Origin: Nitrospirota bacterium
Lineage (GTDB): Bacteria > Nitrospirota > UBA9217
DNA length: 64,000 nucleotides
Assembly (NCBI GenBank): GCA_021814615.1
Contig: JAKAHZ010000004.1
Location: 6,246 to 70,245, forward strand
Direction of reading: 5' to 3'
Below, piece after piece: positions 1 through 54,307 of this stretch. Both the position numbers and the translations under genes were made by a program. Under the pieces are notes generated by a model. The model saw only the letters and a program-made list of their open reading frames with translations. It had not been told where the DNA came from and did no database searches. The stretch's first letter is position 1. Each line of letters begins with the position of its first letter.

Positions 1-1973
1 GCGGCCATGGGGATCCGAGCACTTGGACGATCACCGATCCGAACGGCGATGCGATCACGCCGACGCTGGTCGCTTACGGCTCCAGCTCGCAGCGGATCGC
101 GTTCTTCACTCCCACCGCCGCAGGCAAGTATACGGTTTCCGAGGGATCCAACTCCCTGTCGGTCTATGCAGGCTTTTTTGTCGGCGCGATCTCCGGCGGG
201 GCCGAGGACGGAAAGGGCAATCCTTCGGTCGTTGCCGACGGAGGCTGCATGATCTGCCATGACGATGCGACGGCGCCCGACGAATTCACGCCGTGGAAAG
301 GCACGCTCCACTCCAACTTCTTCGCCCGCGGCCTGAACGGCATCACCTCGAACAATAGCGCCTGCGTATCCTGCCATACGGTCGGTTATGACGAGTCGGC
401 GGCCGCGAAGGATGACGGCGGCTATTACAGCAAGCTGACGAACACCGCCACCAATCCCAACAAATGGCAGTATCCGGCCACGCGCAAGGCCGGCAACTGG
501 GCGGCAATGTGGGATCCCGCAACGGGAGCTCCGCAGGTCGCGCGGATGACCAATATCCAGTGCGAGAGCTGTCACGGACCGAACAACAGCGATGCGCATC
601 AGACGGCCCAGAATCCGACCAGTTCCTCGGCTTTCCGCGTCAGCTACGCCGCTGAAGTCTGCGCGGTCTGCCATGCCTCGGGCACGGGCCATCACCTCTA
701 CTCGGAATGGCAGACGCTGAATCCCGACGAGAAGGACCCCGATGCTGTCGGCAGCACCAGCGAATTCGGCATGGGCCATTCGAACCGGCGCGCGGCGGTC
801 AGCATGGGCGCGGGCAGCAACTCCTGCAGGCGCTGCCATGCCGGCCAGGGCTTCCCGAACTTCCTCACGCAGCTGAACGACGGTTTCATCGGGAATCTCG
901 GAACCGATACGGTAAATCCCATCACGATCGACTGGGATGCGTCGAATGTGGAGCCCATCACCTGCACGGCCTGCCACGATCCGCATGACGCGACGAACCC
1001 GAACCAGTTGCGCGTCTACGGCACCACGCCGCTGCTTCCCTCGGGTTTTGCCGCTGTGGGCCTGGGCAAGGGCGCGCTCTGCATCACCTGCCACAACAGC
1101 AGGAACGGCGCCCAGAGCAGCAGCAACGTCAATACCTATCTGCACGAAGACAGCCAGCCCACGAATACGGGCCTGATGAACTACAACAAGGGCAATCCGA
1201 CGAGCTATAGCGCGCCGCATACCGCTTGCCAGGGCGACGTGTTCATGGGCCGGAACGCCTACTTCCAGGGCGCGGGAAACCTGCCCAAGCTCTCGAAACA
1301 TTCGTCCGTGGAGGATGCCTGCGTGGGATGCCATATGAAACTGAATCCCCAGACACACCTCTCCCATGGCGCTCCGGAAGTGAGCTCCCATGTCTTTTAC
1401 ATCACCAACGCGGACGCGCCGAAGCTCTGCGCGAACTGCCATAGCTCGAATGTGAACGGCGAAGCTCTCCAGGCGGGGGTGGAAGCCGCGCTCGAGGCGC
1501 TTAATACGCAGATGGGCAAGAACGTCCTGTCCAAGGCCACGAATACCGTTCTTAACGTCATTGCATGGGATCCGGCGTCGGATGCCTATTCCAGCGCAAC
1601 CGGCACGAACGGGCAGGTCGCCTTCAACCTCGACCTGACAACGGGCGTGAACAGCATGACCACGGCGTCGCTCTTCGAGATTCACGGACAGATCGGTTTT
1701 ATGGTCACGCTGACGAACCCGGTCACCATGGTCATGACGAACGGATCGACCAAATCACTCTCGACCTTCGGCATCCAGATGGGCAACCTGAAATCAGCGG
1801 CTACGGCAAGCTTCCCGGTTCTCTATAACAATAAGGCCGGCAGCCCCATGGTCAAGGCGGGATGGAACTACTTCCTGATCGAGGGAGACAAGAGCAAAGG
1901 CGTTCATAATCCCAGCTTCGTCCAGGGAGTGCTGAACAGCACGATCAGCATGGTCACGAGCACGAATAACTAA
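1..1973 (+). CDS. Multiheme c-type cytochrome, 5'-partial (paralog of the 2091..4799 gene)
   Basis: Frame 3 is open from position 3 with no stop. Its N-terminal part (TWTITDPNG...GKYTVSEG...PDEFTPWKGTLHSNFFARGLNGITSNN) aligns with the internal region of the downstream 902-aa paralog. About 8 CxxCH motifs (CVSCH, CESCH, CAVCH, CRRCH, CTACH, CITCH, CVGCH, CANCH). Confidence 0.85.
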   Translation, partial: GHGDPSTWTITDPNGDAITPTLVAYGSSSQRIAFFTPTAAGKYTVSEGSNSLSVYAGFFVGAISGGAEDGKGNPSVVADGGCMICHDDATAPDEFTPWKGTLHSNFFARGLNGITSNNSACVSCHTVGYDESAAAKDDGGYYSKLTNTATNPNKWQYPATRKAGNWAAMWDPATGAPQVARMTNIQCESCHGPNNSDAHQTAQNPTSSSAFRVSYAAEVCAVCHASGTGHHLYSEWQTLNPDEKDPDAVGSTSEFGMGHSNRRAAVSMGAGSNSCRRCHAGQGFPNFLTQLNDGFIGNLGTDTVNPITIDWDASNVEPITCTACHDPHDATNPNQLRVYGTTPLLPSGFAAVGLGKGALCITCHNSRNGAQSSSNVNTYLHEDSQPTNTGLMNYNKGNPTSYSAPHTACQGDVFMGRNAYFQGAGNLPKLSKHSSVEDACVGCHMKLNPQTHLSHGAPEVSSHVFYITNADAPKLCANCHSSNVNGEALQAGVEAALEALNTQMGKNVLSKATNTVLNVIAWDPASDAYSSATGTNGQVAFNLDLTTGVNSMTTASLFEIHGQIGFMVTLTNPVTMVMTNGSTKSLSTFGIQMGNLKSAATASFPVLYNNKAGSPMVKAGWNYFLIEGDKSKGVHNPSFVQGVLNSTISMVTSTNN

Positions 1974-2090
1974 ACCACGGCAACGAGAGGCCTGTCTTGG
2001 AAGAGACAGCCCTCTTCGAGCTGAAGGTCACAGGTGATCCTCGCGCGCTGACCCGGCGAGGAAACAAAGATAAAGGAGGAAGAACCTGTC

Positions 2091-4799
2091 ATGAGGAAAC
2101 GACATGGAACAGTAGCAATAGGTTTGATCAGTCTGGTACTGCTGGTTTCTCTAATGGCTCTCGGAGGTTGTAAAGGGGACACCGGTTCGGCCGGGAATAC
2201 GAACGGAACGATCAGCGGTGTCGTGACGTCGGCAACGGGAACGGCGCTGCTGGCAGGGGTAACGGTTACGGCGGTAACGAGCGGCACTACGGCGACCACC
2301 GATTCGTCGGGCGCCTACAGTATGTCGGTGCCCGCCGGCACCTATCAGCTGTCCTTCGCGTTGTCCTCCTATACCTCCGGCAGCGCCACTGCCTACGTGG
2401 CTGCCGGAACGACGACGACGATCAATGTGACCATGGCGCAGGCGGCGAGCGGCAAGCCGACCGTCACAATCGCCGTGGCGAACAACAATATCGGATTCGG
2501 CAACTCGATCGACGTGACCGCTTCCGCGACCGACCCGAACGGCGACACGATCAGTTATGTCTGGACCAACGCCACCGGTTCCGGCACGTTGGCAACAGCC
2601 GTGACGCCGACACTCGGCAAGGCCTTGGGCGGCATGGCGGCTCCATCGAACGATCCGGGCGGATACATCACGGCCTACAAGGTCGAAGATCGTTTCGGCA
2701 TCCTGCCTTTGACGTCTGACACGCGCGGTACGCTGACGGTAACGGTGAAAGCCGATGACGGCAAGGGCCAGTCCTCGACCGCATCGGTGGCTATCAATGC
2801 CGCCGGATTCCAGGGCGGCGTGAAATCCGTGGCGCTCGGGGTTCCCGTCTATGTGAACAGCGGCCATGCTGATCCCAGCACCTGGACGATCACCGATCCG
2901 AACGGCGCTTCCGTAACGGCTACGCTTGTGTCCTACGGCACGAACTCGCAGCGCATCGCGGGCTTTACCCCGACTGTGGCAGGCAAATATGTCGTTGCCG
3001 AGGGCGCGAACTCGATGAATATCTATGCGGGGACCTACGCCGGCGCGATCTCCGGCGGTACCGAGGACAGCAAGGGCAACCCGTCGGTTGTCGCAAATTC
3101 CGATTGCACGGGTTGCCACAATGATACGACGGCTCCCGACGAATTCACGCCGTGGAAGGGAACGTTGCATTCCAATTTCTTCGCACGCGGCTTGAATGGC
3201 ATTACGTCGAACAACGGCACCTGCCTGACCTGCCACACGGTCGGTTACGACACCGCCCCGGCATCGCTCGCAGACGGCGGCTACTACAGCAAACTGACGA
3301 ACACGACAACGAACCCGAACAACTGGCAGTATCCTGCCACGCGCAAGCAGGGCAACTGGGCGACCATGTGGTCGACCACCGCCGGCGCGCCGCAGGTCGC
3401 CGCAATGACGAACATCCAGTGCGAGAGCTGTCATGGACCGAACAATGACGATGCTCACAAGACGTCAAGCACGACGCGCGACCGAGTGAACTTCAGCGCC
3501 GAAGTCTGCGCTGTGTGCCACGCTTCAGGCACGGGCCATCACATCTACTCGGAGTGGCTGTCCGGCGGGGCAGACGAGGAGCCTATGCACGCCAACCTCG
3601 AACTTGCCCTCGAAGAAGGCCTGATCTCGAACAGCTCGAGCACGTCGTACACGTCCTGCGCGCGCTGTCATTCCGCCCAGGGCTATTCGCTGTATTCCGA
3701 CATGCTGAATGCTGGAAACATAGGAGGTATCAGGAATGACAACCGGTTCTGGGACGCGTCTACTGTCGAGCCCCAGACCTGCACTGCCTGCCATGACCCG
3801 CATGATGCAACGAATCCGAATCAGCTTCGGCAGTATAATAACATCGCACTGCTGCCTTCCGGTTTCGGCATATCGGGCTTTGGCAAGGGTGCAATGTGCG
3901 CCTCCTGTCACAATACGCGGAACGGTACGATCAGCAACAATGCCGACTTCGTCGGTCTGAGCATGGCGATCCTGCACGAGGATGCCGATGCCGCGCATCC
4001 GACCAGCATGCCGAAGACTGACGGAACATTCTCGAACAACTTCTCCGTGGGTACGCCACATGCCCCCACGCAGACGGATATTTATGCAGGACGGAACGCG
4101 TTCTTCATGGGCTATGGCAACCTGCCGATGCTTTCGAAACATGCCAATGTCGAGGACACCTGCGTCGGCTGCCATATGAAGCTGAACCCGCAGACCCATC
4201 TTTCACACGGCGCGCCGGAAACGAGCGGCCACGTGATGTTCATCGCTGAAGAGGATGCCTCAAAGGTCTGCGCCAACTGCCATAGCGCGAATGTGGGTGC
4301 CGAGGGCATCATTGCGAACTACGCAGCTGCGCGCGACAACCTGGCGTCGGCCATGGCGAACGCTCTGGCGACCCGTATCTCTTCGTCGATCAACGCGGGC
4401 GCTGCGTACGTGGTGATGACGGACCTGGCCACGGGAAGCTCTACGACGCGCATCACTATCCCGAGCACGAATCCGGTTGTTTCGAGCACTTTCGGCATTT
4501 ACAGCAGCAGGCCTTATGCCGTGCTTAACCTGACGAGCGCAATTACCGCGACCTATGGTTCCGGCGCATCGGCCTATTCGAAGACATCGAACAGCGTTGC
4601 CGTACGGTACGACAACTTCTTCGCGTCGGCGAATGTGGGAAGCAAAACGACGAATTACTCGACCAACAGCGACGGCAACATGGTCAAGGCAATGTGGAAC
4701 TTCATGCTGGCGGACCGCGACAAGAGCAAGGGCATTCACAACCCGAGCTTCGTTTTCGGCGTTCTGAGCAAAACGGCTGCGCAGGACCTTTCAAAGTAA
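2091..4799 (+). CDS. Large lipoprotein multiheme c-type cytochrome (N-terminal CarboxypepD_reg-like beta-sandwich repeats, ~9 CxxCH)
   Basis: RBS aaggagg lies upstream. Lipoprotein signal MRKRHGTVAIGLISLVLLVSLMALGGC. Thr/Gly-rich Ig-like / carboxypeptidase-regulatory-like repeats precede the heme domain. Heme motifs: CTGCH, CLTCH, CESCH, CAVCH, CARCH, CTACH, CASCH, CVGCH, CANCH. Confidence 0.85.
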   Translation: MRKRHGTVAIGLISLVLLVSLMALGGCKGDTGSAGNTNGTISGVVTSATGTALLAGVTVTAVTSGTTATTDSSGAYSMSVPAGTYQLSFALSSYTSGSATAYVAAGTTTTINVTMAQAASGKPTVTIAVANNNIGFGNSIDVTASATDPNGDTISYVWTNATGSGTLATAVTPTLGKALGGMAAPSNDPGGYITAYKVEDRFGILPLTSDTRGTLTVTVKADDGKGQSSTASVAINAAGFQGGVKSVALGVPVYVNSGHADPSTWTITDPNGASVTATLVSYGTNSQRIAGFTPTVAGKYVVAEGANSMNIYAGTYAGAISGGTEDSKGNPSVVANSDCTGCHNDTTAPDEFTPWKGTLHSNFFARGLNGITSNNGTCLTCHTVGYDTAPASLADGGYYSKLTNTTTNPNNWQYPATRKQGNWATMWSTTAGAPQVAAMTNIQCESCHGPNNDDAHKTSSTTRDRVNFSAEVCAVCHASGTGHHIYSEWLSGGADEEPMHANLELALEEGLISNSSSTSYTSCARCHSAQGYSLYSDMLNAGNIGGIRNDNRFWDASTVEPQTCTACHDPHDATNPNQLRQYNNIALLPSGFGISGFGKGAMCASCHNTRNGTISNNADFVGLSMAILHEDADAAHPTSMPKTDGTFSNNFSVGTPHAPTQTDIYAGRNAFFMGYGNLPMLSKHANVEDTCVGCHMKLNPQTHLSHGAPETSGHVMFIAEEDASKVCANCHSANVGAEGIIANYAAARDNLASAMANALATRISSSINAGAAYVVMTDLATGSSTTRITIPSTNPVVSSTFGIYSSRPYAVLNLTSAITATYGSGASAYSKTSNSVAVRYDNFFASANVGSKTTNYSTNSDGNMVKAMWNFMLADRDKSKGIHNPSFVFGVLSKTAAQDLSK

Positions 4800-4815
4800 C
4801 ATAGAGGTGCAATCG

Positions 4816-4847
4816 GAAGGACATGCCCTGCATGGGCATGTCCTTCC
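4816..4847 (+). other. Perfect 14-bp stem / 4-nt loop hairpin immediately downstream of the cytochrome gene stop
   Basis: ggaaggacatgccc-tgca-gggcatgtccttcc. No following T-tract. Confidence 0.6.
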
Positions 4848-4955
4848 GTCTCCTTCCGGGGAACGTTTGTAACGGATCCCCCGAAGGTGAAAGGCAGCGG
4901 GATACCTTCCCGCGCATGAAGAACCACTATCGATTTACGGAAAGGAGGCGGCCAC

Positions 4956-6623
4956 TTGAAAGGAATCACGTTGTTATCCCTACGAAGCGGTCCCTTGAGC
5001 GGAACTATCGTTACAGCTCTGTACGTGGTCCTTTCGGTCGTCCTTATGCTGCCGGCGCGTTCGCTGGCTGCGAGCCTTGAGGGCGAATCGAACACCTACG
5101 TGATGTCACGCGAGACCGCGGACAAGACCAAACTGCTCCCGGTTTATGAGTACCTGAATTTTTCTATCCAGAACCTGGGCGATGAATCATTGTCTGCGAA
5201 CGTCGGCGGCTGGTTCCGTTATGATACCAAAGCAGTGGACAACGAAAGCAACCGGGACAATGACCTGCAGTACGCTTATCTGAGCTACAAGAAGAGCGGA
5301 ACCACGGTGAATGTGGGCCGCGTCATGGTCTTCGAAGGCGTGGCTGCGGAACGCGTGGACGGCGCATATGGCCGCACCGATCTCGGCCGCGGTTTCGGCG
5401 TATCGGCGTTCGGCGGCTCCGCGGTCGCAACCGGCCAGACGGGCACGGCCAACACGATCTACGGCGGACGCCTGACCCATCAGATAGCAGGCCTCTATAC
5501 GATCGGATTTTCCTACCTGAAGGAAGATACCTACCCGAACAACCAGCCCGGCGCAAGCAGCGCGACCTTCCGGGAAGAGGAGGGGATCGATCTCTGGGTG
5601 CGGCCGGTCGCCAAGGTGGAGTTGATGGGCCGGTCGAATTACAATGCCGGGACCAAGGGGTGGATGGAGCATACCTATTATCTTGTGCTGGGACCCTTCG
5701 CCAACCTCCGGTTGAACACCGAAGCATCGTGGATCAACTACGAGGACTATTTTTCTTCATCCACGCTCAGTGTTTTCCAGTTCCAGGCAGGCGGGCCTAT
5801 CGATCCGAAGGAAAAAGCCTCGATTCTGGGAGAAGAGGCGGTCTACGGAATCGGCGACAAATGGACTGTCTCTGCTGACTACAAGAGGTACGGCTATGAT
5901 ATCGCCGGGAACGCCAACTATTACGGCGCGAAGGTGAATTACAGCTACGGAAGTGCGGGAGGTTCGGGACTGTCGGTCCATAGAATGGACGGGGTCAGCG
6001 ATCGTCTTCGGTACGATGAGTACCGTCTCTTCACCTACCGGAAGCTGCACAAGTGGGATCTCGCTCTGGATCTCATCGATGTGAAATATGACCAGAAGAT
6101 CAACGACGTGACGAATGCCTATTCAGCATCGGCTGCCGTCGGATACGAGCTTACGGAAAGCCTGAAGGTGGGCGCCGATGTGGAGTATGCGAAGAATCCC
6201 GATTTCGACAAGGATGTCCGCCTCTTCGTGAAGGCTATCTATGCTTTCGATACGGCCAAGAAACACCCGGCCACGGAGCAGGAAAAGCCTGCGCCAGCAG
6301 CGGATGCGCCGAAGCCGGCAGCACCGGCTGAGGCGCCAAAACCGGCGGCTGAACCGGCCGCGGCCCCCGCGCCGGCAGCACCGGCTGAGGCGCCAAAACC
6401 GGCGGCTGAACCGGCAGCGGCCCCCGCACCGGCTGCGCCGGCGGAAGCTCCCAAACCGGCGGCTGAACCGGCAGCGGCCCCCGCACCGGCTGCGCCGGCG
6501 GAAGCTCCCAAACCCGCGGTTGAACCTGCCGCAGCTCCCGCGCCGGCTGCTGATCCTGCAGCACCGGCAACAGCTCCGGCAGGCGCCGGCGGAGAGACCA
6601 CGCAGAAGGAGGGCGCACAATAA
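4956..6623 (+). CDS. Outer-membrane beta-barrel (porin-like) protein with C-terminal Ala/Pro-rich tandem-repeat tail; candidate porin of a porin-cytochrome conduit
   Basis: Signal peptide present. Alternating amphipathic beta-strand pattern rich in Y/G/N/D/T. Aromatic strand end ...KAIYAF is followed by ~130 aa of AAPAEAPKPAAEPAAAPAP repeats. The stop overlaps the start of the next gene (TAATG). Confidence 0.6.
   Translation: MKGITLLSLRSGPLSGTIVTALYVVLSVVLMLPARSLAASLEGESNTYVMSRETADKTKLLPVYEYLNFSIQNLGDESLSANVGGWFRYDTKAVDNESNRDNDLQYAYLSYKKSGTTVNVGRVMVFEGVAAERVDGAYGRTDLGRGFGVSAFGGSAVATGQTGTANTIYGGRLTHQIAGLYTIGFSYLKEDTYPNNQPGASSATFREEEGIDLWVRPVAKVELMGRSNYNAGTKGWMEHTYYLVLGPFANLRLNTEASWINYEDYFSSSTLSVFQFQAGGPIDPKEKASILGEEAVYGIGDKWTVSADYKRYGYDIAGNANYYGAKVNYSYGSAGGSGLSVHRMDGVSDRLRYDEYRLFTYRKLHKWDLALDLIDVKYDQKINDVTNAYSASAAVGYELTESLKVGADVEYAKNPDFDKDVRLFVKAIYAFDTAKKHPATEQEKPAPAADAPKPAAPAEAPKPAAEPAAAPAPAAPAEAPKPAAEPAAAPAPAAPAEAPKPAAEPAAAPAPAAPAEAPKPAVEPAAAPAPAADPAAPATAPAGAGGETTQKEGAQ
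6318..6545 (+). repeat. 4 x 57-nt tandem repeat encoding the 19-aa unit AAPAEAPKPAAEPAAAPAP
   Basis: Units begin at 6318, 6375, 6432 and 6489. Units 1-2 and 3-4 differ by synonymous substitutions, so the protein sequence is conserved. Confidence 0.85.
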
Positions 6624-7066
6624 TGAAGAAGCTCATCTTTACGCTGCTGTTGCTGGCGAGCCTTCCTTTGCTGATAATCGTTCAGTATGCAAACGCCCAG
6701 AGCTATACGGGAGGAAAGCATCCCGTCGAAGTCTCCGCGCCGCCCATGTGCAGCCAGTGTCATTCCGACGGCAGGGCTTCCATGGACCATACGAGCGATT
6801 TTGGATCCAAACGGCATAAGTTCTATGCTGGACAGGACAGCCGGGCATGTGCTGCCTGTCACCGCGATGCTTTTTGCTCCGATTGTCATGCTCATAAGGA
6901 AGAGCTGAAGCCGAGCGACAAGTACCGTGACGCGCCGGAGCGGACGCTTCCTCATCGAGGCGATTATCTGAACCAGCATAAGATCGACGGCAGGATCAAT
7001 CCTACGTCATGCTACCCGTGCCATGGCCGTCAGAATAATGAGAGGTGCCGAGTATGCCACAAATAA
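6623..7066 (+). CDS. Periplasmic pentaheme c-type cytochrome
   Basis: Sec signal MKKLIFTLLLLASLPLLIIVQYANA. Five CxxCH motifs (CSQCH, CAACH, CSDCH, CYPCH, CRVCH). Translationally coupled to the upstream beta-barrel gene. Confidence 0.8.
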   Translation: MKKLIFTLLLLASLPLLIIVQYANAQSYTGGKHPVEVSAPPMCSQCHSDGRASMDHTSDFGSKRHKFYAGQDSRACAACHRDAFCSDCHAHKEELKPSDKYRDAPERTLPHRGDYLNQHKIDGRINPTSCYPCHGRQNNERCRVCHK

Positions 7067-7803
7067 CGAGAAGCGCGCTTCTGACGATGCTCCTCTGCGC
7101 GGGGCTGTTGGCGGTCATCGGCTGCGGGACGGCGAACGATAAGGCGACATTTGACAGCGACAAGGGCCATGAGACGGGCTGGCTGCCCGCAAAGCATGCC
7201 GAGGCGGCAAAGGCCGACTACGCCGCATGCGCGGAATGCCATGGCGAGCAGTACGACGGCGGCCAATCCAAGGTCTCATGCACGGCGTGCCATTTGGGCG
7301 GCCCTACGTCGGCTCATCCCGAGGACTGGACCGGAAATGCAGCGCAGAATCACGCTCCCTATGCAAAGGAAAACGGCATTGCTTCCTGCGCTGCCCAGTA
7401 TTGCCACGGCACGCAGTACGAAGGCGTGGCTGAGAGCGGCCCTGCCTGCATATCGTGCCACATGGGCGGACCGGAGTCCATGCATCCGAAGGACTGGGGA
7501 AACTACACGTACGTGAAGCATGCTTTAACCGTAACCTATGCCGGATCGGATACGTCCAAGTGTGCGAATGCAAACTGCCACGGAAGCGATCTGACCGGCG
7601 TAAAGGGGAGCGGACCCTCTTGTACGAGCTGTCATCTGGGCGGCGCTTTCAGCGTGCACCCGGAAAGCTGGAAAGCCAACTTGTCCGAGCATAAGGCCTA
7701 TGTAGCGAACAACGGCTCGCTGACATGCTCCAATGCCGTGTGTCATGGCACCCAATTGCAGGGTGTTGCCGGAAGCGGACCTGCCTGCACTACCTGCCAT
7801 TAA
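7045..7803 (+). CDS. Lipoprotein multiheme c-type cytochrome with mixed CxxCH and CX4CH heme motifs (triplicated ~60-aa module)
   Basis: Lipobox LLAVIGCG. Motifs CAECH, CTACH, CAAQYCH, CISCH, CANANCH, CTSCH, CSNAVCH, CTTCH. The module CxxCHLGGP..HPEDW/ESW...CX4CHGTQ..GVA.SGP.C.SCH recurs three times. Confidence 0.8.
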   Translation: MPSMPQITRSALLTMLLCAGLLAVIGCGTANDKATFDSDKGHETGWLPAKHAEAAKADYAACAECHGEQYDGGQSKVSCTACHLGGPTSAHPEDWTGNAAQNHAPYAKENGIASCAAQYCHGTQYEGVAESGPACISCHMGGPESMHPKDWGNYTYVKHALTVTYAGSDTSKCANANCHGSDLTGVKGSGPSCTSCHLGGAFSVHPESWKANLSEHKAYVANNGSLTCSNAVCHGTQLQGVAGSGPACTTCH

Positions 7804-7825: not shown

Positions 7826-7865
7826 CAAAAAGGGAGAATGGCTTTTGCCATTCTCCCTTTTTTTG
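7826..7865. terminator. Bidirectional rho-independent terminator between the convergent cytochrome gene and argB
   Basis: Hairpin gggagaatggc-tttt-gccattctccc is flanked by an A-run on one side and a T-run on the other. Confidence 0.7.
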
Positions 7866-7895
7866 TTGCAGAAAAACAGGCCGTAAGAGCCGCTG

Positions 7896-25556: not shown

Positions 25557-27344
25557 TCAATACTTATGACAGTTCTTGCAGATATCCTTGGGCGCGTTCG
25601 CCGGATACCGGAAGAGCTTCATCGAATCGGAGCTGTGCGGATTGTGGCAGCTGGCGCAGGAGAAAGGCTTCCCTTCGCGAGCGGGGTCCCGTTCTTTCTT
25701 GCTCAGTTTGTGCGGTTTTCCGCCGTCGGCATGCTTCGGGATGCCGAGCGGATGGCCGCCGGTGCCGAATCCGGAGATGGCGTGTGGCTTCTTGGCTACG
25801 TCGTCGTGGCAGTCGAGGCAGACGAGCGAGGGCGCCTTGAGCAGGATGGCATAGAAATCCGACGAATGCGGCGTGTGGCAGGAGAGGCACATGCCGTCGG
25901 CGACGGGCGGATGCACGTTCTTCTTCGTGAATTCCGCCTTGTCGTGGCAGGTATAGCAGAGATCGGGGACCGCCGAAAGGAGGAGCCGTTCGTTCTTCGT
26001 TGAATGGGGGGTGTGGCAGCCCGTGCATCCCATCCCGACCGCGGCGTGAACGACCTGTTTCGTGAATTTGGCCTTGTCGTGGCAGGTGTAACAGAGGTCG
26101 GGCTGCGCTGAGAGAAGCAGCCGTTCGTTCTTTGACGAATGGGGGGTATGGCAGGCGGTGCATCCCATGCCGAGCGCGGCATGCACCACTTTCTCGGTGA
26201 ACTTGGTCTTGTCGTGGCACTGGTAGCAGAGCTCGGTTCCTTCGGCCTTCAGCAGCTTGCCGGTATCGGTCGAGTGGGGGCTGTGGCAGGCGGTGCATCC
26301 CATGCCGATTGCCGCATGCACGACTTTCTCGGTGAACTTGGCCTTGTCATGGCAGGTGTAGCAGAGGTCGGCGCCGTCAGCTTTCAGGAGCTTGTCGGCC
26401 TTGGTCGAATGAGGGCTGTGGCAGGCGGTGCATCCCTTGCCCAGAGCGGCATGGACCGTCTTGTGCGTGAACTGCGCCTTGTCATGGCACTGGTAGCAGA
26501 GCTCCGGCGCCTCGGCTTTCAGGAGCTTGGGCGTGGCGGTTGAATGGGGATTGTGGCAGGATGTGCAGCCCATGCCGATGGCGCCGTGGACGGTCTTCTG
26601 CGTGAACTTGGATTTGTCGTGACACTGGTAGCAGAGCTCGGCGCCTCCGTTTTTCAGCAGTTTCTCCGATGACGTGGAATGGGGATCATGGCAGGCGGTG
26701 CATCCCATGCCGATGGCCGCATGGACCGTCTTCTGCGTGAACTTGGACTTGTCGTGGCACTGATAGCAGAGCTCCGGCGGCTCGGCCTTCAGGAGCTTGG
26801 GCGTCGGCGTGGCATGGGGGGCATGGCAGGCGGTGCAGCCCATGCTGATTGCGGCGTGGACCGTCTTCTGGGTGAACTTCGACTTGTCGTGGCAGGTGAA
26901 GCAGAGCGCCGGCTGCTCCTCGTTCAGGAGCTTGGCGTTGTCCGAAGAATGGGGATTGTGGCAGCCGGTGCAGCCCATGCTGACGGCCGCATGGACCGTC
27001 TTGTTCGTAAAGGAGGCCTTGTCATGGCATTGATAGCAGAGCTCGGGCTGCTCGGCGGAGAGGCCCCGCTTGATATTGTTCGTGATCTTGTGCGGAACGG
27101 GGATCATGGCGCCCAGTCCGGTGTGGCAGGTGCGGCACCCCATGTCCAGCGCCGCATGGACGACCTTCTGTTTCGCCAGGCGGGAATGGCACATCAAGCA
27201 GTCCACTTCCTCGGCTTCTGCGGCAGGCGGCGGAAGGAGCAGCAGGAACGCAGCCAGTACCGCCAGAGCCGCCATACGCCGGAGCACTGCGGAGAACGGG
27301 CGCCTGCGGGCTGGATTCATTTCGAAATGATGTGCTGTAGCCAT
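25557..27344 (-). CDS. Tandem-repeat multiheme c-type cytochrome (~23 CxxCH; nine 45-aa diheme repeat units)
   Basis: Signal peptide present. Repeated unit KFT.KTVHAA.GMGCT.CH.PHS....KLLKAE..ELCYQCHDK. Ends CKNCHKY. Confidence 0.85.
   Translation of the reverse strand: MATAHHFEMNPARRRPFSAVLRRMAALAVLAAFLLLLPPPAAEAEEVDCLMCHSRLAKQKVVHAALDMGCRTCHTGLGAMIPVPHKITNNIKRGLSAEQPELCYQCHDKASFTNKTVHAAVSMGCTGCHNPHSSDNAKLLNEEQPALCFTCHDKSKFTQKTVHAAISMGCTACHAPHATPTPKLLKAEPPELCYQCHDKSKFTQKTVHAAIGMGCTACHDPHSTSSEKLLKNGGAELCYQCHDKSKFTQKTVHGAIGMGCTSCHNPHSTATPKLLKAEAPELCYQCHDKAQFTHKTVHAALGKGCTACHSPHSTKADKLLKADGADLCYTCHDKAKFTEKVVHAAIGMGCTACHSPHSTDTGKLLKAEGTELCYQCHDKTKFTEKVVHAALGMGCTACHTPHSSKNERLLLSAQPDLCYTCHDKAKFTKQVVHAAVGMGCTGCHTPHSTKNERLLLSAVPDLCYTCHDKAEFTKKNVHPPVADGMCLSCHTPHSSDFYAILLKAPSLVCLDCHDDVAKKPHAISGFGTGGHPLGIPKHADGGKPHKLSKKERDPAREGKPFSCASCHNPHSSDSMKLFRYPANAPKDICKNCHKY
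25941..27155 (-). repeat. 135-nt tandem repeat array (about 9 units) inside the cytochrome gene
   Basis: The gtcgtggcac/gtcatggcag motif recurs at 25941, 26076, 26211, 26346, 26481, 26616, 26751, 26886 and 27021 with an exact 135-nt period. Confidence 0.85.
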
Positions 27345-27377
27345 GACGACGAAATCCTCCGTGAACAGGGATATCGA

Positions 27378-28187
27378 TCAGTATTTATGGCAGTTCTTGC
27401 ACAACTCCATCGGCGTGCGGGCGGGATACCGGAACAGCCTGACAGAGTCGGAACTGTGGGGATTGTGGCAGCTCGTACAGGAAAAGGGTTTGCCCTGACG
27501 GGCGGGATCCATCTTCTCCTTCTTTTTTCCTTCCGGTTCTTTTTTCTCCTTCTTTTCGGCCTTGGGCAGGCCCAGGGAATGCCCGTTGCCGCCGAACCCC
27601 GCGAGGGCATGGGGTCTCTTGGCGACTTCCTCATGGCAGTCGAGGCAGATCACGGACGGAGCCTTCTGAAGCAGGGCATAATTATCCGAGGAGTGGGGAT
27701 CGTGGCAGACCAGGCACATTTTATCCGCGACGGGCGGATGGACGTTCTTCTTCGTGAATTCCGCTTTGTCGTGGCAGTTCATGCACAGGTCGGGCACCGG
27801 AGCGATCAGGAGCTTCTCGTTGTCCGATGCATGGGGATTGTGGCATGCAGTGCAGCCCATGCCGATGGCAGCATGAACGACCGTGTGGGTAAACTTCGCC
27901 TTGTCGTGGCATCCATAGCAGAGCTCGGGCTGGTCCGCGGAAAGGCCTTTGGCGAAGGAGGTGGTTTTCTTGTGCGGCACCTTGAGCGCGTCATCGATGC
28001 CGCTGTGGCAAGCCGGGCAGCCCATGGAGACCGCAGCATGCACGACCTTCTTCTTGGCCGTGAGGCCGGCATGGCACTTGGAACAGTCGACCTCCTTCTT
28101 TGCCGGCGCTTCTGCAGCTGATGAGGGAAGGACGAAGAACAGGGAAACGATTGCCGCACTCAGGGCACAGCTGAGAAATCTGCGCAT
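27378..28187 (-). CDS. Multiheme c-type cytochrome (9 CxxCH), short paralog of the 595-aa repeat cytochrome
   Basis: Signal peptide present. Same diheme module and an identical C-terminus CKNCHKY. Confidence 0.85.
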   Translation of the reverse strand: MRRFLSCALSAAIVSLFFVLPSSAAEAPAKKEVDCSKCHAGLTAKKKVVHAAVSMGCPACHSGIDDALKVPHKKTTSFAKGLSADQPELCYGCHDKAKFTHTVVHAAIGMGCTACHNPHASDNEKLLIAPVPDLCMNCHDKAEFTKKNVHPPVADKMCLVCHDPHSSDNYALLQKAPSVICLDCHEEVAKRPHALAGFGGNGHSLGLPKAEKKEKKEPEGKKKEKMDPARQGKPFSCTSCHNPHSSDSVRLFRYPARTPMELCKNCHKY

Positions 28188-28442: not shown

Positions 28443-30059
28443 TTAGGGCAAGAAGGTCATGCTCATATCGATACCGGCGGCATTATCAGTGCGCAGATCG
28501 GCAGGCATCGGTCCGGCATGGGCTTTCACCTTCGGCGCTATCGAGGACCAGCCCAACGCCTCGATGCTGTAGAACGCTCCGGGGAGGGGCTGATCCGCGG
28601 TGCCGCCCGGGAGGTTCGACAGGGTATAGCTGCCGCCGGAAACGACCTCGCTGTTGATCCGGAGCGCATTCACGATCATCCCGCCATGCACCGCGAAGAC
28701 CACACCGCGATCCAGGACGCCGGTCTTGTCCGCGGGAATCTGGATACTGCCGGACACGGTCCGTGCCGTTGCCGGCGCCTTTACGTTCAGGGGACCGAAT
28801 ATCAGGTCCGCATGCTGCGGGTCCACGGGAAGGGGATCGCTGTGCTCGTAGAGTACCGCGTCCGCGACAGCCCGGAATCCTCCCGCACCCTCCACGGGAA
28901 CGACTGTGGTCAGGTTGACGGCCGCGGGATCGTAGACGCCCACATCGATCGGTTCTGCGGAGAGCGGAAAACCCGCGAAGGCGCCGGTCAGGGGACCGAA
29001 GTGTCGGATCCTGATCAGGTAGGGCGCTTCATTCGCTCCGGGAAGGGTCTGGTAGAACTTCGCCCAAGCGCCTGTCGGCGAGGCGATCGTGGCGCTCACC
29101 GGATAATCCGGGGCGGCAGCAGAAGTGAGCGTGACCGGGGGAATTTCCGTAGGCGATGCAGTCGGGGTCGTCCCCTGTACCGCGGGAACGTTCCTGATGA
29201 TCGCCGTCCGGTAGCCGATGCCGCGGATCACGATATCGTAGGAGCCGGGAACGAGCGGATAGAGGATGAACCGGCCGGTGGCCGGGTCCGCAATGAAGGT
29301 GGCCCTTCTGAGCACGTGTACCGCGCCGTCGGCGGAAAGCTGTTCGGCTTTGATCACGAACCGGGCGGTCGCCGTATTCGCCGATGCGATCGTGTCGATG
29401 TGGCCGGTGATGGCGCCGGCATTGTCCAGATCGAAGGATGCAAGGTTCGGCTTGAGGATATATTCGGTCTGGCCGTCGTGGTCGATCTTCACAATGTCGT
29501 GGCCTGCGTCGAAATCCAGGGCGAGCTTGAGCTTGCCGTTCTTCTTGACCTCGAAGGTTCCTTCCAGCCTGATGCCCTTCTGCGCTCCCGGTATGCGGAG
29601 GGGATAGGCCGCCGCATCGCCGGTCAGGTTCACCTGGTTGTTGTAGGCGAGTCCCGCATCGGTGGCCGAGGCGGCGAGCGGCGCTTCCGTGGCGGCGAGG
29701 ATGATCCGGATCTGCTCATAAGTCCCTTCGGGAAGCTCGATGTTGTCCCAGACCGGAACGCTGATCGCGCCGTTGGAAAGATCCAGGAGATCCAGGGTGA
29801 CCGGGGCCGCAAGCGGGAACTTCTCCCAGCCGGTCTGGTCCGGCCCCGACTGCTTCGATTGGCTGAACCAGAGGTCCTTGACGGTGATCCAGGCATGGTC
29901 CATGCCGTCGGCAGGCGCGTCGGTAATACTTACCGCTACTGCGCCCATTGCTGCGCCGGAAGTGCCCGATGTGGTCGATGCGCTTCCGGACCCGTTTGAG
30001 CATGCCTGCAGCAACAGGATGAGAAATGCACTGATCCAGAGATTGCGGATGGTCTTCAT
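28443..30059 (-). CDS. DUF4382-like lipoprotein, hypothetical
   Basis: Lipobox LLLQAC. The MDHAWITVKDLWF region resembles DUF4382. Downstream beta-sandwich-like region. Start taken at the internal MKTIRN; the ORF extends to 30086. Confidence 0.45.
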   Translation of the reverse strand: MKTIRNLWISAFLILLLQACSNGSGSASTTSGTSGAAMGAVAVSITDAPADGMDHAWITVKDLWFSQSKQSGPDQTGWEKFPLAAPVTLDLLDLSNGAISVPVWDNIELPEGTYEQIRIILAATEAPLAASATDAGLAYNNQVNLTGDAAAYPLRIPGAQKGIRLEGTFEVKKNGKLKLALDFDAGHDIVKIDHDGQTEYILKPNLASFDLDNAGAITGHIDTIASANTATARFVIKAEQLSADGAVHVLRRATFIADPATGRFILYPLVPGSYDIVIRGIGYRTAIIRNVPAVQGTTPTASPTEIPPVTLTSAAAPDYPVSATIASPTGAWAKFYQTLPGANEAPYLIRIRHFGPLTGAFAGFPLSAEPIDVGVYDPAAVNLTTVVPVEGAGGFRAVADAVLYEHSDPLPVDPQHADLIFGPLNVKAPATARTVSGSIQIPADKTGVLDRGVVFAVHGGMIVNALRINSEVVSGGSYTLSNLPGGTADQPLPGAFYSIEALGWSSIAPKVKAHAGPMPADLRTDNAAGIDMSMTFLP

Positions 30060-30749
30060 CAGAATCCTCCTCCGTATGGTGTGCACGTTCGGCCGCGTGT
30101 TGATGAATGAGACAGTGGGAAGAGAAAAAGGTTGAATGATGACCGAGGGTAATTAGCACTCACACAAAGGCTGATTATTTGCTAGTTTTTAAGATAGGTG
30201 AGCTTGAGATAAAGGAATAGCCGTAGGCGACCTTATCGCCCCTTGCAAAGCCCTGTCGAACATTCAGCGGGGCTTTTTTGTTGGGCGCGGTTTTTTCGTA
30301 CACCGCGAGAGAGTTCCCACCGCATCCTTTCACGGCCTGGATGGCCTGATTTTGTCTTCGCCTTTCATGACGGTACAGAAATAGGACCGCGTATGCTTGC
30401 TCGCATTGCGAAGCAGACGGGTCTCCTGCCTTCTGATTTGTAGAATAGCCGAATTAATCTAATCTTTCGCAAAACGTCGAAGACATTCTACGGCAGTTCG
30501 AGCAACGGGGAAAGAAAAGAGCCCGAAGGATGTATCCTTCAGGCTCATGATCCCCTCTCTGTTCATGGCCGGGGAGGCTGACCCATGCCGCGGCCCTGTC
30601 CGCCGCCGCGCGCTCCCGAAATCATATCGCGCATTTCGCGCTGGAATTCCTGAGCTCTTGCATGTCCGAGTTCCGCGGCTCAGTCCGCGCAGAAGCGGCA
30701 ATGCGGCGGGTTGCGATCAAATGTCTATTTGAAAATAAAAAATACATAT

Positions 30750-47684: not shown

Positions 47685-50600
47685 ATGCACAGGCATTTCT
47701 ATCGGAAAAACCATGTCCCGTATTTCATGGCATTGTTCGTTCTTCTTTTCTCGCTCTTTGCTTGCGGCGGAGGGGGAGGGGGCGGCGGCAGCGCGAACGA
47801 TGGCTTGAACACCGGCGGCACCACGACCAATCCCGGCGACACGATCGCCACGGGTCAGGCCAAGATCACCGGCACGGTCCAGCCGGATCCCAACAGCCCC
47901 ACGTCGGCAGCAGGCCAGAACTCAGGCGCCACGGTATATGTCGTCGGCCAGCAGGACAAGGCTGCGACGACCGATGCCAACGGCAACTTCACGCTCACCG
48001 TGGACGCCACGCTCACGGGCACGGTCCTGTCCAGCCCCAAGGGCTTCTTCGCTTCGCTCTTCAAGGCAGCGGGGGACGTGAAGCAGTACGGCCTCGTTGT
48101 TATCAGCTCCCAGAACAGCCACGGAAGAAAGACGGAAGTGCAGGTCACCGAGGGGCAGGCGAACAGCCTCGATACGATCTATATCAACACGGTCGGCTCG
48201 ATCACGGGCAAGGCATACCTCCAGGGCCAGACGGACCACACGGGTATCCGGGTCTACATCCCCGGCACCTCTTTCCAGGCCACGACGGATGCGAACGGGA
48301 ACTACAACATGACCGGTGTGCCCTCCGGCACCTATGACATCGTGCGGGCGGACTACCCCGGCACGGTCTATCACTATGCCGCGGTGGCGAAGGTCACGGT
48401 AGCATCGAATCAGGCGACCGCGCTTCCCGACATGCTGCTGCAACTGTCCACCGGACCGAATGGCAGCATCCTGATCAACAAGGGGGATGCCTACACCACG
48501 TCCAAGACCGTCACTGTGTCCATCGCGCCGAGCGCCAACGCCGTGCTGATGATGGTTTCGGAAGATATCAATTTCCAGGGAATTAGCTGGGAGCCGGTAT
48601 CCGCTGCGAAACAATACACCTTTGCAGGTTCATACGACGGCGGGAGCACCGCAAGGATTTATGCGCGGTTCTCGGATAGCAGCGCCCTGGAGAGCACGCC
48701 GGTCTCTGATGACATCTTCATCGATACGAATCCGCTTGCCACGATCACATCCCCGGTGAATTCAGGCGTCATCTCCGATACCAAACCGGCCTTCAACTGG
48801 AAATATGCACCGGCCGTCCAGATGCCGAACGCCCGGTATCACATCCAACTGACCACGGTGGCTGATACGGGTTTTTCCTCACCGCTGGCAGACGCGACGA
48901 CAGCTGCTAATGTTACGCAATATGCCTATGCCGGAGCGGCGCTGAATAATCTGAGCGGCTATATCTGGCGCGTGGCGATGGTTGACGAGGCAGGGAAACA
49001 ATGGAGCTGGGCAGGACCATGGTCTTTTTCGATCGATCTGAGCACGGTCACGCTGTTGAAACCGGATTTTGGCTCATATGTCAATAAGGCTGCGAACGAC
49101 ACAGGCATCACCTTCATGTGGCAGGCGAATGCGAATGCCTCCACCTATGAGCTTGCGTTGTGTCGAAACGATGCAAGTCTGTCCTGCGGAACGGCATATA
49201 CGGTAACTGCGCCCGGCATCAGCAAGCAGATATTGCCGATCAGTACAGGTGATGGTTTATATAATTGGGCTGTAACGCCGATCGACGCAAACGGAGTCAG
49301 GGGTAAGCGATCCGATGTGTGGCAATTCGATCTTGACAAGACCGTTCCGGGAATCGTTCTTGTCAGTCCATCGGGTGGCGCGCAGAACGTATCAAAACTG
49401 TCCCCGATCACCGTGCAGTTTGACGACGCTTTAGACGGCTCTACGATCATCAGCCCCGCGACGAATTTCACGCTGAACAGCGGAGCCGTTCCGGGAACCG
49501 TAAGCTATTCAGTATCCGCAAATACCGCGACATTCACCCCGGCAAGCACGCTGGGCTTCGGAGTGACCTATGCGGCCACCGTTACGACAGCGATAAAGGA
49601 CCCGGCAGGAAACGCTCTCTTCTCCGGACAGACATGGACCTTTTCCACGAAGAACGTTCCTGAACAGTGGACGTTTGCTGCCGATGGCGGATCGTCAAGT
49701 TTGAACTACAGTACTGCCAACGAAGCGGATACGCCGCAAATGGCTGTTCTCGGCAATGGTTTGTTCGCCTTCTGGTCGGAAGCAGGAAATATTCGCGGCT
49801 CGGTTTATAGCGGAAGTACCTGGTCGTTCATCGATGGTGGCGGAGCGACAAGTACCATATCAAGCGCCGGCGGATATCCCCGGCCTGCCGTGTACGGCAA
49901 TGAGTTGTACTTGTTGTGGATATCCGGTGGAACCGTCAACATGAAGAAATACGATGCAAACGGTTCCTGGACTTCTGTTTCAGGCGGTGCAATGGGATTC
50001 AATTATGATTATATGAAAACGTCCAGTGGAAATGCCATTGCAGCTGCCAACAAACTCTATGCGATATGGAGCGAAAATAACAATTCGAGTATTTTGCAGA
50101 TTCGGGCGAAAGTGTATACTGCGGGAACGTTCTCGTTCATTGACGGCGGAGGCGCGAATGGGATTAATTATGATCCTACTCGTATTACCAGCGGTTCGCC
50201 TGCGGCTGTCGCGATGAATGACAAGCTGTATATTGCATGGACGGAAAGGAATGTCTCAGGAATCGATCAGATCAGGATAAAGGTGTACAACGACAGTACT
50301 GCGACGTGGTCGTTCATTGATGGCGGCGGCGCGAACGGAGTGAATGCTGACGGGACGAAAAACGCAGCGTATCCTTCGCTGGCTTTCATGGGCAATACGC
50401 TTTATGCTTCATGGGCCGAGCAGGGTGCGTCTGTAAATCAGATTCGGGTCGCTGCATATTCGAGCGGGACCTGGTCGTTTATCGATAACGGTGGCATAAA
50501 CAAGAGTCCGACGAATCAAGCGTGCAATCCTAAGCTTGCTGTCTTGAGCGGAGTGCTCTATGCAACCTGGGCGGAAGGAATGTGCATATATGATCCGAAT

Positions 50601-50810
50601 GGAGATGAAATTCGAGTTGCGGCATTCGGCAATGGGTCATGGGCATTCGTGGATGGCGGAGCAGTAACGGGGCTGAATCTTGATTCTACGAAAATGGCCT
50701 ATGCGCCTCAGATTACGATCTATAACAATAAACCCTATATAACGTGGGCTGAAACGAATGCCAGCACGGGCACATCGCATAATCAAGCATTGGTAAAGGT
50801 CGGGCAGTGA
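47685..50810 (+). CDS. Large surface lipoprotein paralog 1 (poly-Gly linker, CarboxypepD_reg-like domains, Ig/FN3-like domains, C-terminal beta-propeller-like WSFIDGGG repeats)
   Basis: Lipobox LFSLFAC followed by GGGGGGGG. N-terminal ~330 aa shared with the two downstream paralogs. Six C-terminal repeats of the form LY..W.E...IR...Y...TWSFIDGGG. The start may instead be the internal MALFVLL. Confidence 0.75.
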   Translation: MHRHFYRKNHVPYFMALFVLLFSLFACGGGGGGGGSANDGLNTGGTTTNPGDTIATGQAKITGTVQPDPNSPTSAAGQNSGATVYVVGQQDKAATTDANGNFTLTVDATLTGTVLSSPKGFFASLFKAAGDVKQYGLVVISSQNSHGRKTEVQVTEGQANSLDTIYINTVGSITGKAYLQGQTDHTGIRVYIPGTSFQATTDANGNYNMTGVPSGTYDIVRADYPGTVYHYAAVAKVTVASNQATALPDMLLQLSTGPNGSILINKGDAYTTSKTVTVSIAPSANAVLMMVSEDINFQGISWEPVSAAKQYTFAGSYDGGSTARIYARFSDSSALESTPVSDDIFIDTNPLATITSPVNSGVISDTKPAFNWKYAPAVQMPNARYHIQLTTVADTGFSSPLADATTAANVTQYAYAGAALNNLSGYIWRVAMVDEAGKQWSWAGPWSFSIDLSTVTLLKPDFGSYVNKAANDTGITFMWQANANASTYELALCRNDASLSCGTAYTVTAPGISKQILPISTGDGLYNWAVTPIDANGVRGKRSDVWQFDLDKTVPGIVLVSPSGGAQNVSKLSPITVQFDDALDGSTIISPATNFTLNSGAVPGTVSYSVSANTATFTPASTLGFGVTYAATVTTAIKDPAGNALFSGQTWTFSTKNVPEQWTFAADGGSSSLNYSTANEADTPQMAVLGNGLFAFWSEAGNIRGSVYSGSTWSFIDGGGATSTISSAGGYPRPAVYGNELYLLWISGGTVNMKKYDANGSWTSVSGGAMGFNYDYMKTSSGNAIAAANKLYAIWSENNNSSILQIRAKVYTAGTFSFIDGGGANGINYDPTRITSGSPAAVAMNDKLYIAWTERNVSGIDQIRIKVYNDSTATWSFIDGGGANGVNADGTKNAAYPSLAFMGNTLYASWAEQGASVNQIRVAAYSSGTWSFIDNGGINKSPTNQACNPKLAVLSGVLYATWAEGMCIYDPNGDEIRVAAFGNGSWAFVDGGAVTGLNLDSTKMAYAPQITIYNNKPYITWAETNASTGTSHNQALVKVGQ

Positions 50811-50846
50811 TCACGTGCTGTGTATCAGGAAGACAGGAATACATTC

Positions 50847-50874
50847 GAGGGGCCTTCGGGCCCCTTTTTTTATT
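50847..50874 (+). terminator. Rho-independent terminator after paralog 1
   Basis: Hairpin gaggggcc-ttcg-ggcccc followed by tttttttatt. Confidence 0.8.
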
Positions 50875-51012
50875 TGGTTCATTTTTGGGAATGGTCTCAA
50901 ACCACAGATTGATATCGCCGAAAAATACCCCGGCATTCTGTGAATTATCCCTTGACCGGAAATGCAGGATAATGAATAATACGGCCCACTGTAGAGCTAT
51001 TCCAGTTCGTCG

Positions 51013-54105: not shown

Positions 54106-54174
54106 CCAAAGTAGCGTCAAGAGAAATATTTATTAACCCGACGTCGTCGGATATGGCATCGCAATAGCTGAATG

Positions 54175-54209
54175 AAAAGCCCGGGAGAATATCTCCCGGG
54201 CTTTTCTTG
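54175..54209 (+). terminator. Rho-independent terminator after paralog 2
   Basis: Hairpin gcccgggaga-atat-ctcccgggc followed by ttttcttg. Confidence 0.7.
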
Positions 54210-54307
54210 TTTCAGGTCCTTTTCACCGGGAATTATCACTTGACCTTCCGGGCGACTTGTTCAATAATAGCAGCCATCTCTAATGTACCCTGTCTTGGGG
54301 AGGGACC

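Follow-up and report, generated by a model that had tools for sequence, protein, structure and literature searches.

The five-gene cluster that opens our 64,000-nt window of Nitrospirota DNA probably encodes a porin–cytochrome electron conduit of the outer membrane, accompanied by terminal surface cytochromes, with a core that most likely belongs to the Ext family of Geobacter. We infer this from computational analysis rather than experiment and give the reading a probability of about 0.72. The core consists of three genes, encoding a β-barrel protein, a pentaheme cytochrome and a lipoprotein cytochrome, and two genes for large nonaheme cytochromes, cytA and cytB, lie upstream of it (Table 1). 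A preliminary description had called the five genes co-oriented, and an ORF check of the window returned each of them on the + strand with its coordinates unchanged.

Table 1. Features of the conduit cluster (positions in the window)
Feature	Position	Strand	Description
cytA, 3′ part	1..1973	+	in-frame translation from base 3; cut by window start
cytB	2091..4799	+	902-aa nonaheme lipoprotein cytochrome
Hairpin in cytB/barrel gap	4814..4848	+	perfect 15-bp stem, GC-rich, no U tract
Predicted 22-strand barrel gene	4956..6623	+	555 aa; alternative start 4995
57-nt tandem repeat	6314..6550	+	4.2 copies, in C-terminal tail of barrel gene
Pentaheme gene	6623..7066	+	147 aa, 5 CXXCH
Lipoprotein cytochrome gene	7045..7803	+	252 aa; 5 CXXCH + 3 CX4CH
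Intrinsic terminator	7828..7868	.	15-bp stem, A run 5′, U7 3′

The cluster adjoins argB-hslUV. The terminator downstream of its last gene is canonical (folding z-score −4.4) and common to the conduit operon and the convergent argB. The region around the other hairpin, from 4800 to 4870, folds at −38.5 kcal/mol with a z-score of −5.8, and 0 of 200 shuffled sequences fold as well. This hairpin may mark a transcript boundary or act on RNA stability. Its position suggests that cytA and cytB are transcribed apart from the core, and the five genes are probably not on one transcript. A scan for promoter and terminator consensus sequences found fewer sites than in shuffled sequences and missed both clear hairpins, and an Rfam search of the whole window gave no matches.

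The barrel gene has a TTG start with AGGAGG six bases upstream, whereas the NCBI start lies 13 codons downstream (P0001, 542 aa). With either start the protein has a signal peptide, and it contains no Cys. The AF2 model (pLDDT 81.7) has 22 strands, and large outer-membrane barrels, MtrB among them, account for all of its best structural matches. The barrel spans approximately residues 40–432 and ends in an aromatic motif, ...KAIYAF. The protein combines a signal peptide, a closed all-β barrel and a C-terminal aromatic β-signal, as expected of outer-membrane barrels. On the model, the 555-aa protein is predicted with good confidence to be a 22-strand transmembrane β-barrel; the proposal of a signal-peptide β-barrel, which would have fallen had no barrel been predicted, is thereby borne out. 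Behind the barrel follows a 124-aa Pro/Ala-rich tail. It includes a 19-aa Pro/Ala-rich repeat, the 57-nt units of which match at 91% with no indels. Among 93 barrel homologues the tail has a median length of 10 aa and is at least 40 aa long in 15; that of the window is the longest. Pfam and NCBIfam returned nothing for the barrel protein, even at E ≤ 10, and a PDB sequence search with the barrel profile recovered neither MtrB nor any meaningful relative.

The ATG of the pentaheme gene shares one base with the TAA of the barrel gene (TAATG), an overlap originally noted, and its product has exactly five CXXCH motifs. The signal peptide is of the signal-peptidase-I type (ANA-QS). In the family alignment, the five CXXCH motifs and exactly five further His (H33, H56, H65, H111 and H119) are invariant. 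Most family members have a lipobox (LYAC), as do most of the distant representatives, whereas the window protein has Asn at the site of the lipobox Cys. Searched in full with HMMER, the pentaheme profile gave 472 representatives; in the clusters of profile matches, the only named proteins are from Desulfobulbaceae, and no Geobacter names occur. PDB sequence searches recovered neither MtrA nor another solved protein with the profile, and no meaningful relative with the single sequence.

The lipoprotein cytochrome has a lipobox (IGC) and is built of repeats of about 57 aa, each with one CX2/4CH...CXXCH pair. Its gene overlaps the pentaheme gene by 22 nt, or by 13 nt if translation starts at the alternative ATG at 7054. 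The protein had been introduced as an 8-heme lipoprotein; the count of eight motifs and the lipid anchor hold, and the motifs are corrected here to five CXXCH and three CX4CH. Across eight orthologues, seven further His are invariant, as are the lipobox Cys and each of the eight motifs, and an eighth His is present in six. The lipoprotein encoded at this position in related loci has between 4 and about 21 heme motifs of this kind. The Geobacter CxxxxCH...CXXCH family, which would be expected for such a protein, did not appear in the Pfam and NCBIfam searches, and a single-sequence search of the PDB found no meaningful relative. For the pentaheme and lipoprotein cytochromes, the Pfam and NCBIfam matches are to cytochrome c7/c3 and are sub-threshold only. 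None of the three core proteins exceeds a curated Pfam or NCBIfam threshold, and none has a solved sequence relative.

The cytochromes cytA and cytB are the two paralogous lipoproteins of about 900 aa first noticed in the window. Full-length cytA (P0242) has 910 aa, of which 656 codons lie in the window; BLASTP aligns it with cytB along the full length at 58% identity. Each has nine CXXCH motifs and a lipobox, FSGC in cytA and LGGC in cytB. In cytB, the lipobox is followed by a CarboxypepD_reg domain (residues 41–120), β-sandwich domains (approximately 124–335), a heme domain (approximately 336–770) and a C-terminal sheet/helix domain. The Pfam matches of cytA are MtrC/MtrF domain II/IV (5e-12), Paired_CXXCH and Cytochrome c552. 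With nine c-type hemes on an NrfA-like scaffold, both proteins are OcwA-like. Unlike OcwA (PDB 6I5B), the surface cytochrome with nine hemes from Thermincola potens, they are lipoproteins of a diderm; they also have an N-terminal CarboxypepD_reg and Ig-like stalk of about 300 residues and, at the C-terminus, a further domain of about 130. A PDB sequence search with cytB gave no meaningful relative and did not recover OcwA at E ≤ 1. The MtrC/OmcA type is characterized by ten hemes, PF22113 pentaheme domains II/IV and an MtrC/OmcA N-terminal domain.

Linkage was counted in 64 independent loci from species-representative genomes. The pentaheme gene directly follows the barrel gene in 62, the contigs of the other two stopping within the barrel gene, and a gene like that of the lipoprotein cytochrome is third in 59, with a typical overlap of about 18 nt. 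The barrel and pentaheme genes are translationally coupled in nearly all loci. The triad is carried by Nitrospirota MAGs and by Geobacteraceae/Desulfuromonadales, that is, by two phyla. The order barrel, pentaheme, lipoprotein is far beyond chance; the suspected grouping, which scattered homologues in related genomes would have undone, is thus a conserved one. A large surface cytochrome is nearby in most loci: an OcwA/NrfA-like nonaheme protein behind a β-sandwich stalk here, an MtrC/OmcA-type decaheme elsewhere. The core is kept with cytB-like, MtrC-like or no neighboring large cytochrome. Metagenomes contain more than 200 barrel and about 700 pentaheme homologues, the latter 146–148 aa long. 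To call the architecture unusual was an overstatement, as the layout is common in metagenomes and matches ExtBCD and ExtEFG in gene order and pentaheme content.

In Geobacter sulfurreducens, ExtBCD (of ExtABCD, GSU2645-2642) and ExtEFG (GSU2726-2724) are each encoded as a barrel, then a pentaheme, then a multiheme cytochrome (PMC6148476). ExtC and ExtF, each a pentaheme lipoprotein, share 49% identity, ExtD is a predicted lipoprotein, and ExtG is a predicted periplasmic dodecaheme cytochrome. ExtB and ExtE are treated as one porin family, of which Holophaga also has members. Within Geobacter, the bemidjiensis/M18/M21 group is listed as having ExtF homologues of 43–46% identity, and some species have a decaheme lipoprotein upstream of extE. 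Among cultured carriers of the triad, the closest belong to Geobacteraceae (Geomonas, with two species, and Geomesophilobacter). Geomonas azotofigens and G. diazotrophica are cultured carriers, and Geomonas loci L057 and L058 resemble the extE layout, with a decaheme lipoprotein upstream of the barrel gene. The bemidjiensis group is now divided between Geomonas and a sister genus.

The window likewise has the barrel gene directly followed by the pentaheme and then a multiheme cytochrome. In both systems the pentaheme is the best-conserved part, the outer cytochrome is swapped non-orthologously, and the carriers include Geobacteraceae and Desulfuromonadales. There are differences. ExtC and ExtF are reported to have a lipobox, as most of the pentaheme family does, whereas the window pentaheme lacks the lipobox Cys. 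Barrel strands number 22 as predicted here, against 18 (ExtB) and 21 (ExtE) reported with another prediction method. Unlike Ext, the third gene encodes a CX4CH/CXXCH-repeat lipoprotein; the cluster has no neighboring ExtA-like gene, belongs to a Nitrospirota bacterium and lies beside argB-hslUV. Exact-match scans of metagenome contigs with the published extB and extC deletion-primer sequences gave 0 matches. Compared by gene order and published descriptions, the core most likely belongs to the ExtBCD/ExtEFG family.

The logic of Geobacter porin–cytochrome conduits, which had been recognized at the outset, is also that of OmbB-OmaB-OmcB: a porin, a non-lipoprotein cytochrome and a lipoprotein cytochrome, in the same order. 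The components differ in size, as had been said, with 5 and 8 (5+3) heme motifs here against 8 in OmaB and 12 in OmcB, and on these heme counts, compared by description, membership was rejected. Membership in MtrCAB of Shewanella (PDB 6R2Q) was rejected as well, since the barrel has 22 rather than 26 strands and the inner cytochrome five rather than ten hemes. The gene order of MtrCAB also differs, and PDB profile searches with the barrel and the pentaheme did not find the 6R2Q chains. It is unlikely, in our judgment, that barrel and pentaheme form an independent minimal conduit type unrelated to Ext, Omb/Oma and Mtr. Under that proposal a five-heme protein of about 121 residues would wire a 22-strand barrel, be inherited vertically beside argB-hslUV in an uncultured Nitrospirota clade, mark metal respiration or electroactivity there, and be coupled to OcwA-type reductases. 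To our knowledge, such reductases have so far been characterized in a single Gram-positive bacterium (Thermincola). The cluster looks like the Ext-type conduits of Geobacter rather than a new machine.

In the proposed conduit, the 22-strand barrel would sit in the outer membrane with the pentaheme, a compact protein of about 121 mature residues and five bis-His hemes, threaded into its lumen as an insulated heme wire; the fit is judged from geometry. Electrons would pass from the pentaheme to the lipid-anchored 8-heme repeat cytochrome at the outer face. This cytochrome would feed the two lipid-anchored OcwA/NrfA-like nonaheme cytochromes, which, on their β-sandwich stalks, may touch minerals, humics, shuttles or partner cells. 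The inner end would be supplied by periplasmic multiheme cytochromes encoded elsewhere, candidates being the 9- and 23-heme Paired_CXXCH proteins at 25.5–28.2 kb. Since the default location of a diderm lipoprotein is on the periplasmic side, placing the three lipoprotein cytochromes at the cell surface is an assumption.

The same conduit may instead run inward, taking electrons from Fe(II), a cathodic mineral or a syntrophic partner by direct interspecies electron transfer. Porin–cytochrome conduits work either way, MtoAB and PioAB being related to MtrAB; iron oxidizers occur in the phylum, and no result of our analysis sets a direction. Inward flow is also what the literature on Oet-/Ext-type conduits of syntrophic sulfate reducers assumes (PMC10553843). 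Against it stand the genetically studied Ext conduits, which act in reduction, the partner cytochromes, whose types (OcwA and MtrC/OmcA) are known as terminal reductases, and the closest cultured carriers of the triad. These are Geobacteraceae, a family known for iron reduction. We therefore regard inward flow as a minority reading, of perhaps one chance in five.

A much less probable reading dispenses with the conduit. The barrel would be a plain solute channel, or would serve to export or anchor the cytochromes, and cytA and cytB would be periplasmic or surface enzymes of the NrfA/octaheme reductase type whose substrate is a nitrogen or sulfur oxyanion and whose electrons come from the small cytochromes. 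The fold of cytB is equally close to nitrite reductases and to OcwA, so an enzymatic role for it is possible. The CXXCK catalytic motif, however, is found in neither cytA nor cytB. The conservation of the core whichever large cytochrome adjoins it, or none, makes it independent of an NrfA-like enzyme, and the near-universal coupling of the barrel and pentaheme genes likewise argues against this reading.

We thus return to the electron conduit as the probable function of the cluster. Cultured Nitrospirota are known chiefly as nitrite oxidizers, iron oxidizers, sulfate reducers and magnetotactic bacteria. When the literature was searched for this conduit in the phylum, it returned only unrelated reports of Cyc2 and of a Manganitrophus porin–cytochrome. 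Should this reading hold, an entire clade of uncultured Nitrospirota from the subsurface, soil and groundwater has a conserved, chromosomally fixed outer-membrane conduit, and its members would be candidates for respiration of iron, manganese or humic substances, or for electron uptake. The core is also attractive for structural work, with a predicted 22-strand barrel and a five-heme insert about half the size of MtrA; the Ext conduits that it resembles are known from genetics only. That OcwA-like and MtrC-like terminal cytochromes replace one another around the same core is a natural experiment in how a conduit is matched to its acceptor.

The five-gene cluster claimed in the preliminary description was found in full at the start of the window, with every gene on the + strand. 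Two large lipoprotein cytochrome genes, cytA and cytB, precede a triad composed of a barrel gene, a pentaheme gene and a lipoprotein cytochrome gene. CytA and CytB each have nine CXXCH motifs and a lipoprotein signal peptide, and they are 58% identical over their full length (BLASTP, P0242). Two starts are possible for the barrel gene: a TTG preceded by a good Shine-Dalgarno sequence, and a site 13 codons downstream, the one used in the NCBI annotation (P0001). The described overlap between the pentaheme ATG and the barrel stop codon is borne out and amounts to one common base; the lipoprotein cytochrome gene in turn overlaps the pentaheme gene. Between cytB and the barrel gene lies a hairpin with a perfect 15-bp stem but no U tract, and a canonical terminator, facing the convergent argB, lies 3′ of the lipoprotein cytochrome gene. 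The G+C content of the cluster is the same as that of the remainder of the window.

Features of the cluster and of possibly related loci in the window
Feature	Position	Strand	Properties
Five-gene cluster	1-7803	+	five genes
cytA	interrupted by window start	+	full-length deposited protein P0242, 910 aa
cytB	2091..4799	+	902 aa
Barrel gene	4956..6623	+	555 aa, Cys-free, signal peptide
Pro/Ala-rich tail of barrel protein	6252..6620	+	124 aa
Pentaheme gene	6623..7066	+	147 aa, signal-peptidase-I type leader, exactly five CXXCH
Lipoprotein cytochrome gene	7045 or 7054..7803	+	252 aa, five CXXCH and three CX4CH
Two neighboring multiheme cytochromes	25557..28187	-	Paired_CXXCH_1 domains dominate both
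DUF4382 protein	28443..30086	-	547 aa; weak CarboxypepD_reg match too
Three tandem ORFs	47685..57280	+	1041, 1030, 990 aa; CarboxypepD_reg-like domains

Linkage was examined in 64 loci obtained by a scan that took a single genome for each species. They come from MAGs of Nitrospirota and of Geobacteraceae/Desulfuromonadales and from three cultured strains (Geomesophilobacter sediminis, Geomonas azotofigens and Geomonas diazotrophica); their neighboring genes were identified by tblastn and by ORF and heme-motif scans. The pentaheme gene, ~147 aa and with five CXXCH without exception, lies directly 3′ of the barrel gene in 62 of the 64, the two remaining contigs stopping within the barrel gene. 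A gene like that of the window's lipoprotein cytochrome is next in order in 59. The co-localization of homologues, on which the preliminary description made its reading depend, is thus observed. Across loci, the third core gene encodes a modular lipoprotein with 4 to ~21 CX2-4CH motifs. Just as in the window, argB and hslU adjoin the triad in the loci from Nitrospirota, an arrangement that speaks for stable vertical inheritance rather than for a genomic island. Two Nitrospirota genomes have two complete triads in tandem (locus L011, 8385..17084; locus L017, 10001..18604) with a cytB-like nonaheme gene between them, so the conduit has undergone duplication within the clade.

The cytB family has a broad distribution that includes MAGs of Nitrospirota, Myxococcota, Chloroflexota and Acidobacteriota, and a large lipoprotein cytochrome is found near the triad in most related loci. 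Only 10 of the 53 large cytochrome ORFs of these loci are cytB-like, and the four decahemes examined are all clear MtrC/OmcA-type proteins (PF22113 at ~1e-46). The terminal cytochrome is thus exchangeable around a constant core. CytA and CytB are OcwA/NrfA-like, and the cluster might be read as an NrfA-like enzyme with a channel rather than a conduit; this is less likely, as the core is retained whichever large cytochrome accompanies it, and no CXXCK site is present in CytA or CytB. The recurring barrel-pentaheme-lipoprotein order and the invariant heme motifs, considered next, support the earlier interpretation as a porin-cytochrome conduit.

In an alignment of 36 pentaheme sequences, the five CXXCH motifs and exactly five other histidines are invariant, a pattern that fits five bis-His hemes. 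The pentaheme profile also matches the mid-region of four representative proteins of ~340–370 aa, P0400 (12 CXXCH by count), P0412, P0417 and P0421, at E values of 1e-15 to 1e-19, so the five-heme module is found within larger cytochromes as well. Among eight orthologues of the lipoprotein cytochrome, invariance extends to the lipobox Cys, to each of the eight motifs (the three CX4CH among them) and to seven other histidines; an eighth histidine is present in six. Since CX4CH heme sites are known from cytochromes c3, the eight hemes attributed to this protein are a fair count.

The barrel protein is confidently predicted to form a 22-strand transmembrane beta-barrel, the other point on which the preliminary description made its reading depend. 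It matches no Pfam or NCBIfam model, even at E = 10. It has at least 214 homologues, with ~50–62% identity among the 120 matches listed. The Pro/Ala-rich tail follows the terminal aromatic strand (...KAIYAF) and is encoded in part by 4.2 tandem copies of a 57-nt repeat. A C-terminal extension beyond this strand is an unusual placement for an outer-membrane protein. The tail ranges from 6 to 124 aa among homologues, the window's being the longest seen. Because the strand number is even, the tail should be periplasmic, and it might be a spacer toward peptidoglycan or periplasmic partners. Regardless of tail length, a ...K-E-G... motif is conserved at the C-terminus of the barrel proteins (6600..6623 in the window). 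These residues are encoded by AAG GAG GGx, which is also the Shine-Dalgarno sequence for the pentaheme gene that overlaps the barrel gene; thus, the conserved C-terminus most likely reflects a translation signal, not a protein constraint.

Among known conduits, the OmbB-OmaB-OmcB unit was ruled out by heme counts (5 and 8 versus 8 and 12), and the MtrCAB unit by predicted strand number and heme count (22 strands, 5 hemes); profile searches found no similarity to the MtrCAB structure, 6R2Q. In Geobacter sulfurreducens, ExtB is a porin, ExtC a pentaheme lipoprotein and ExtD a multiheme lipoprotein, and ExtE, ExtF (a pentaheme lipoprotein) and ExtG form a parallel set (PMC6148476). ExtC and ExtF are 49% identical, ExtB and ExtE were modelled as a single porin family with members also in Holophaga, and no ExtG homologue meets the published criteria. 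Some clusters have an extra decaheme lipoprotein upstream of extE, and outer lipoproteins frequently undergo non-orthologous replacement. ExtF homologues (43–46% identity) are present in the bemidjiensis/M18/M21 group. This group has since been reclassified as Geomonas and a sister genus. Each of these published traits has a counterpart in the window or the related loci, and most pentaheme family members likewise have a lipobox; unlike ExtC and ExtF, the window's pentaheme lacks the lipobox Cys. By analogy with the published descriptions, therefore, we infer that the core is an Ext-type conduit. The "unusual architecture" of the preliminary description is better described as resembling Ext and not Omb/Oma/Omc.

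The proposed conduit would be a heme wire across the outer membrane, with the pentaheme inside the barrel, the eight-heme lipoprotein at the barrel rim and the OcwA-like nonahemes as terminal contacts. The lumen of a 22-strand barrel is the size of that of a TonB-dependent receptor, which houses a ~150-residue plug; on geometric grounds it is plausible that the mature pentaheme, at ~121 residues, fits within.

Elsewhere in the window, the two neighboring multiheme cytochromes are of 595 aa (23 CXXCH; Paired_CXXCH_1, E 1e-129) and 269 aa (9 CXXCH; E 4e-42), and the DUF4382 gene lies directly upstream of them in the direction of transcription. In some Geobacter extA is located apart from its conduit. 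As at least one of the ExtA homologues listed is annotated as a doubled-CXXCH protein, the 23- and 9-heme cytochromes could, by analogy, be separately encoded periplasmic feeders of the conduit. The three tandem ORFs, the 1041- and 990-aa products of which also have Ig-like domains, contain no heme motifs and appear to be related large surface proteins that share domains of the CytA/CytB stalk type.

A literature search for this kind of conduit in Nitrospirota yielded no description of it, the reports retrieved being on Cyc2 and on porin–cytochromes of Manganitrophus. The conduit core is no new principle. It belongs to a common, uncurated family whose structure is unsolved and which is compact enough for a good model.
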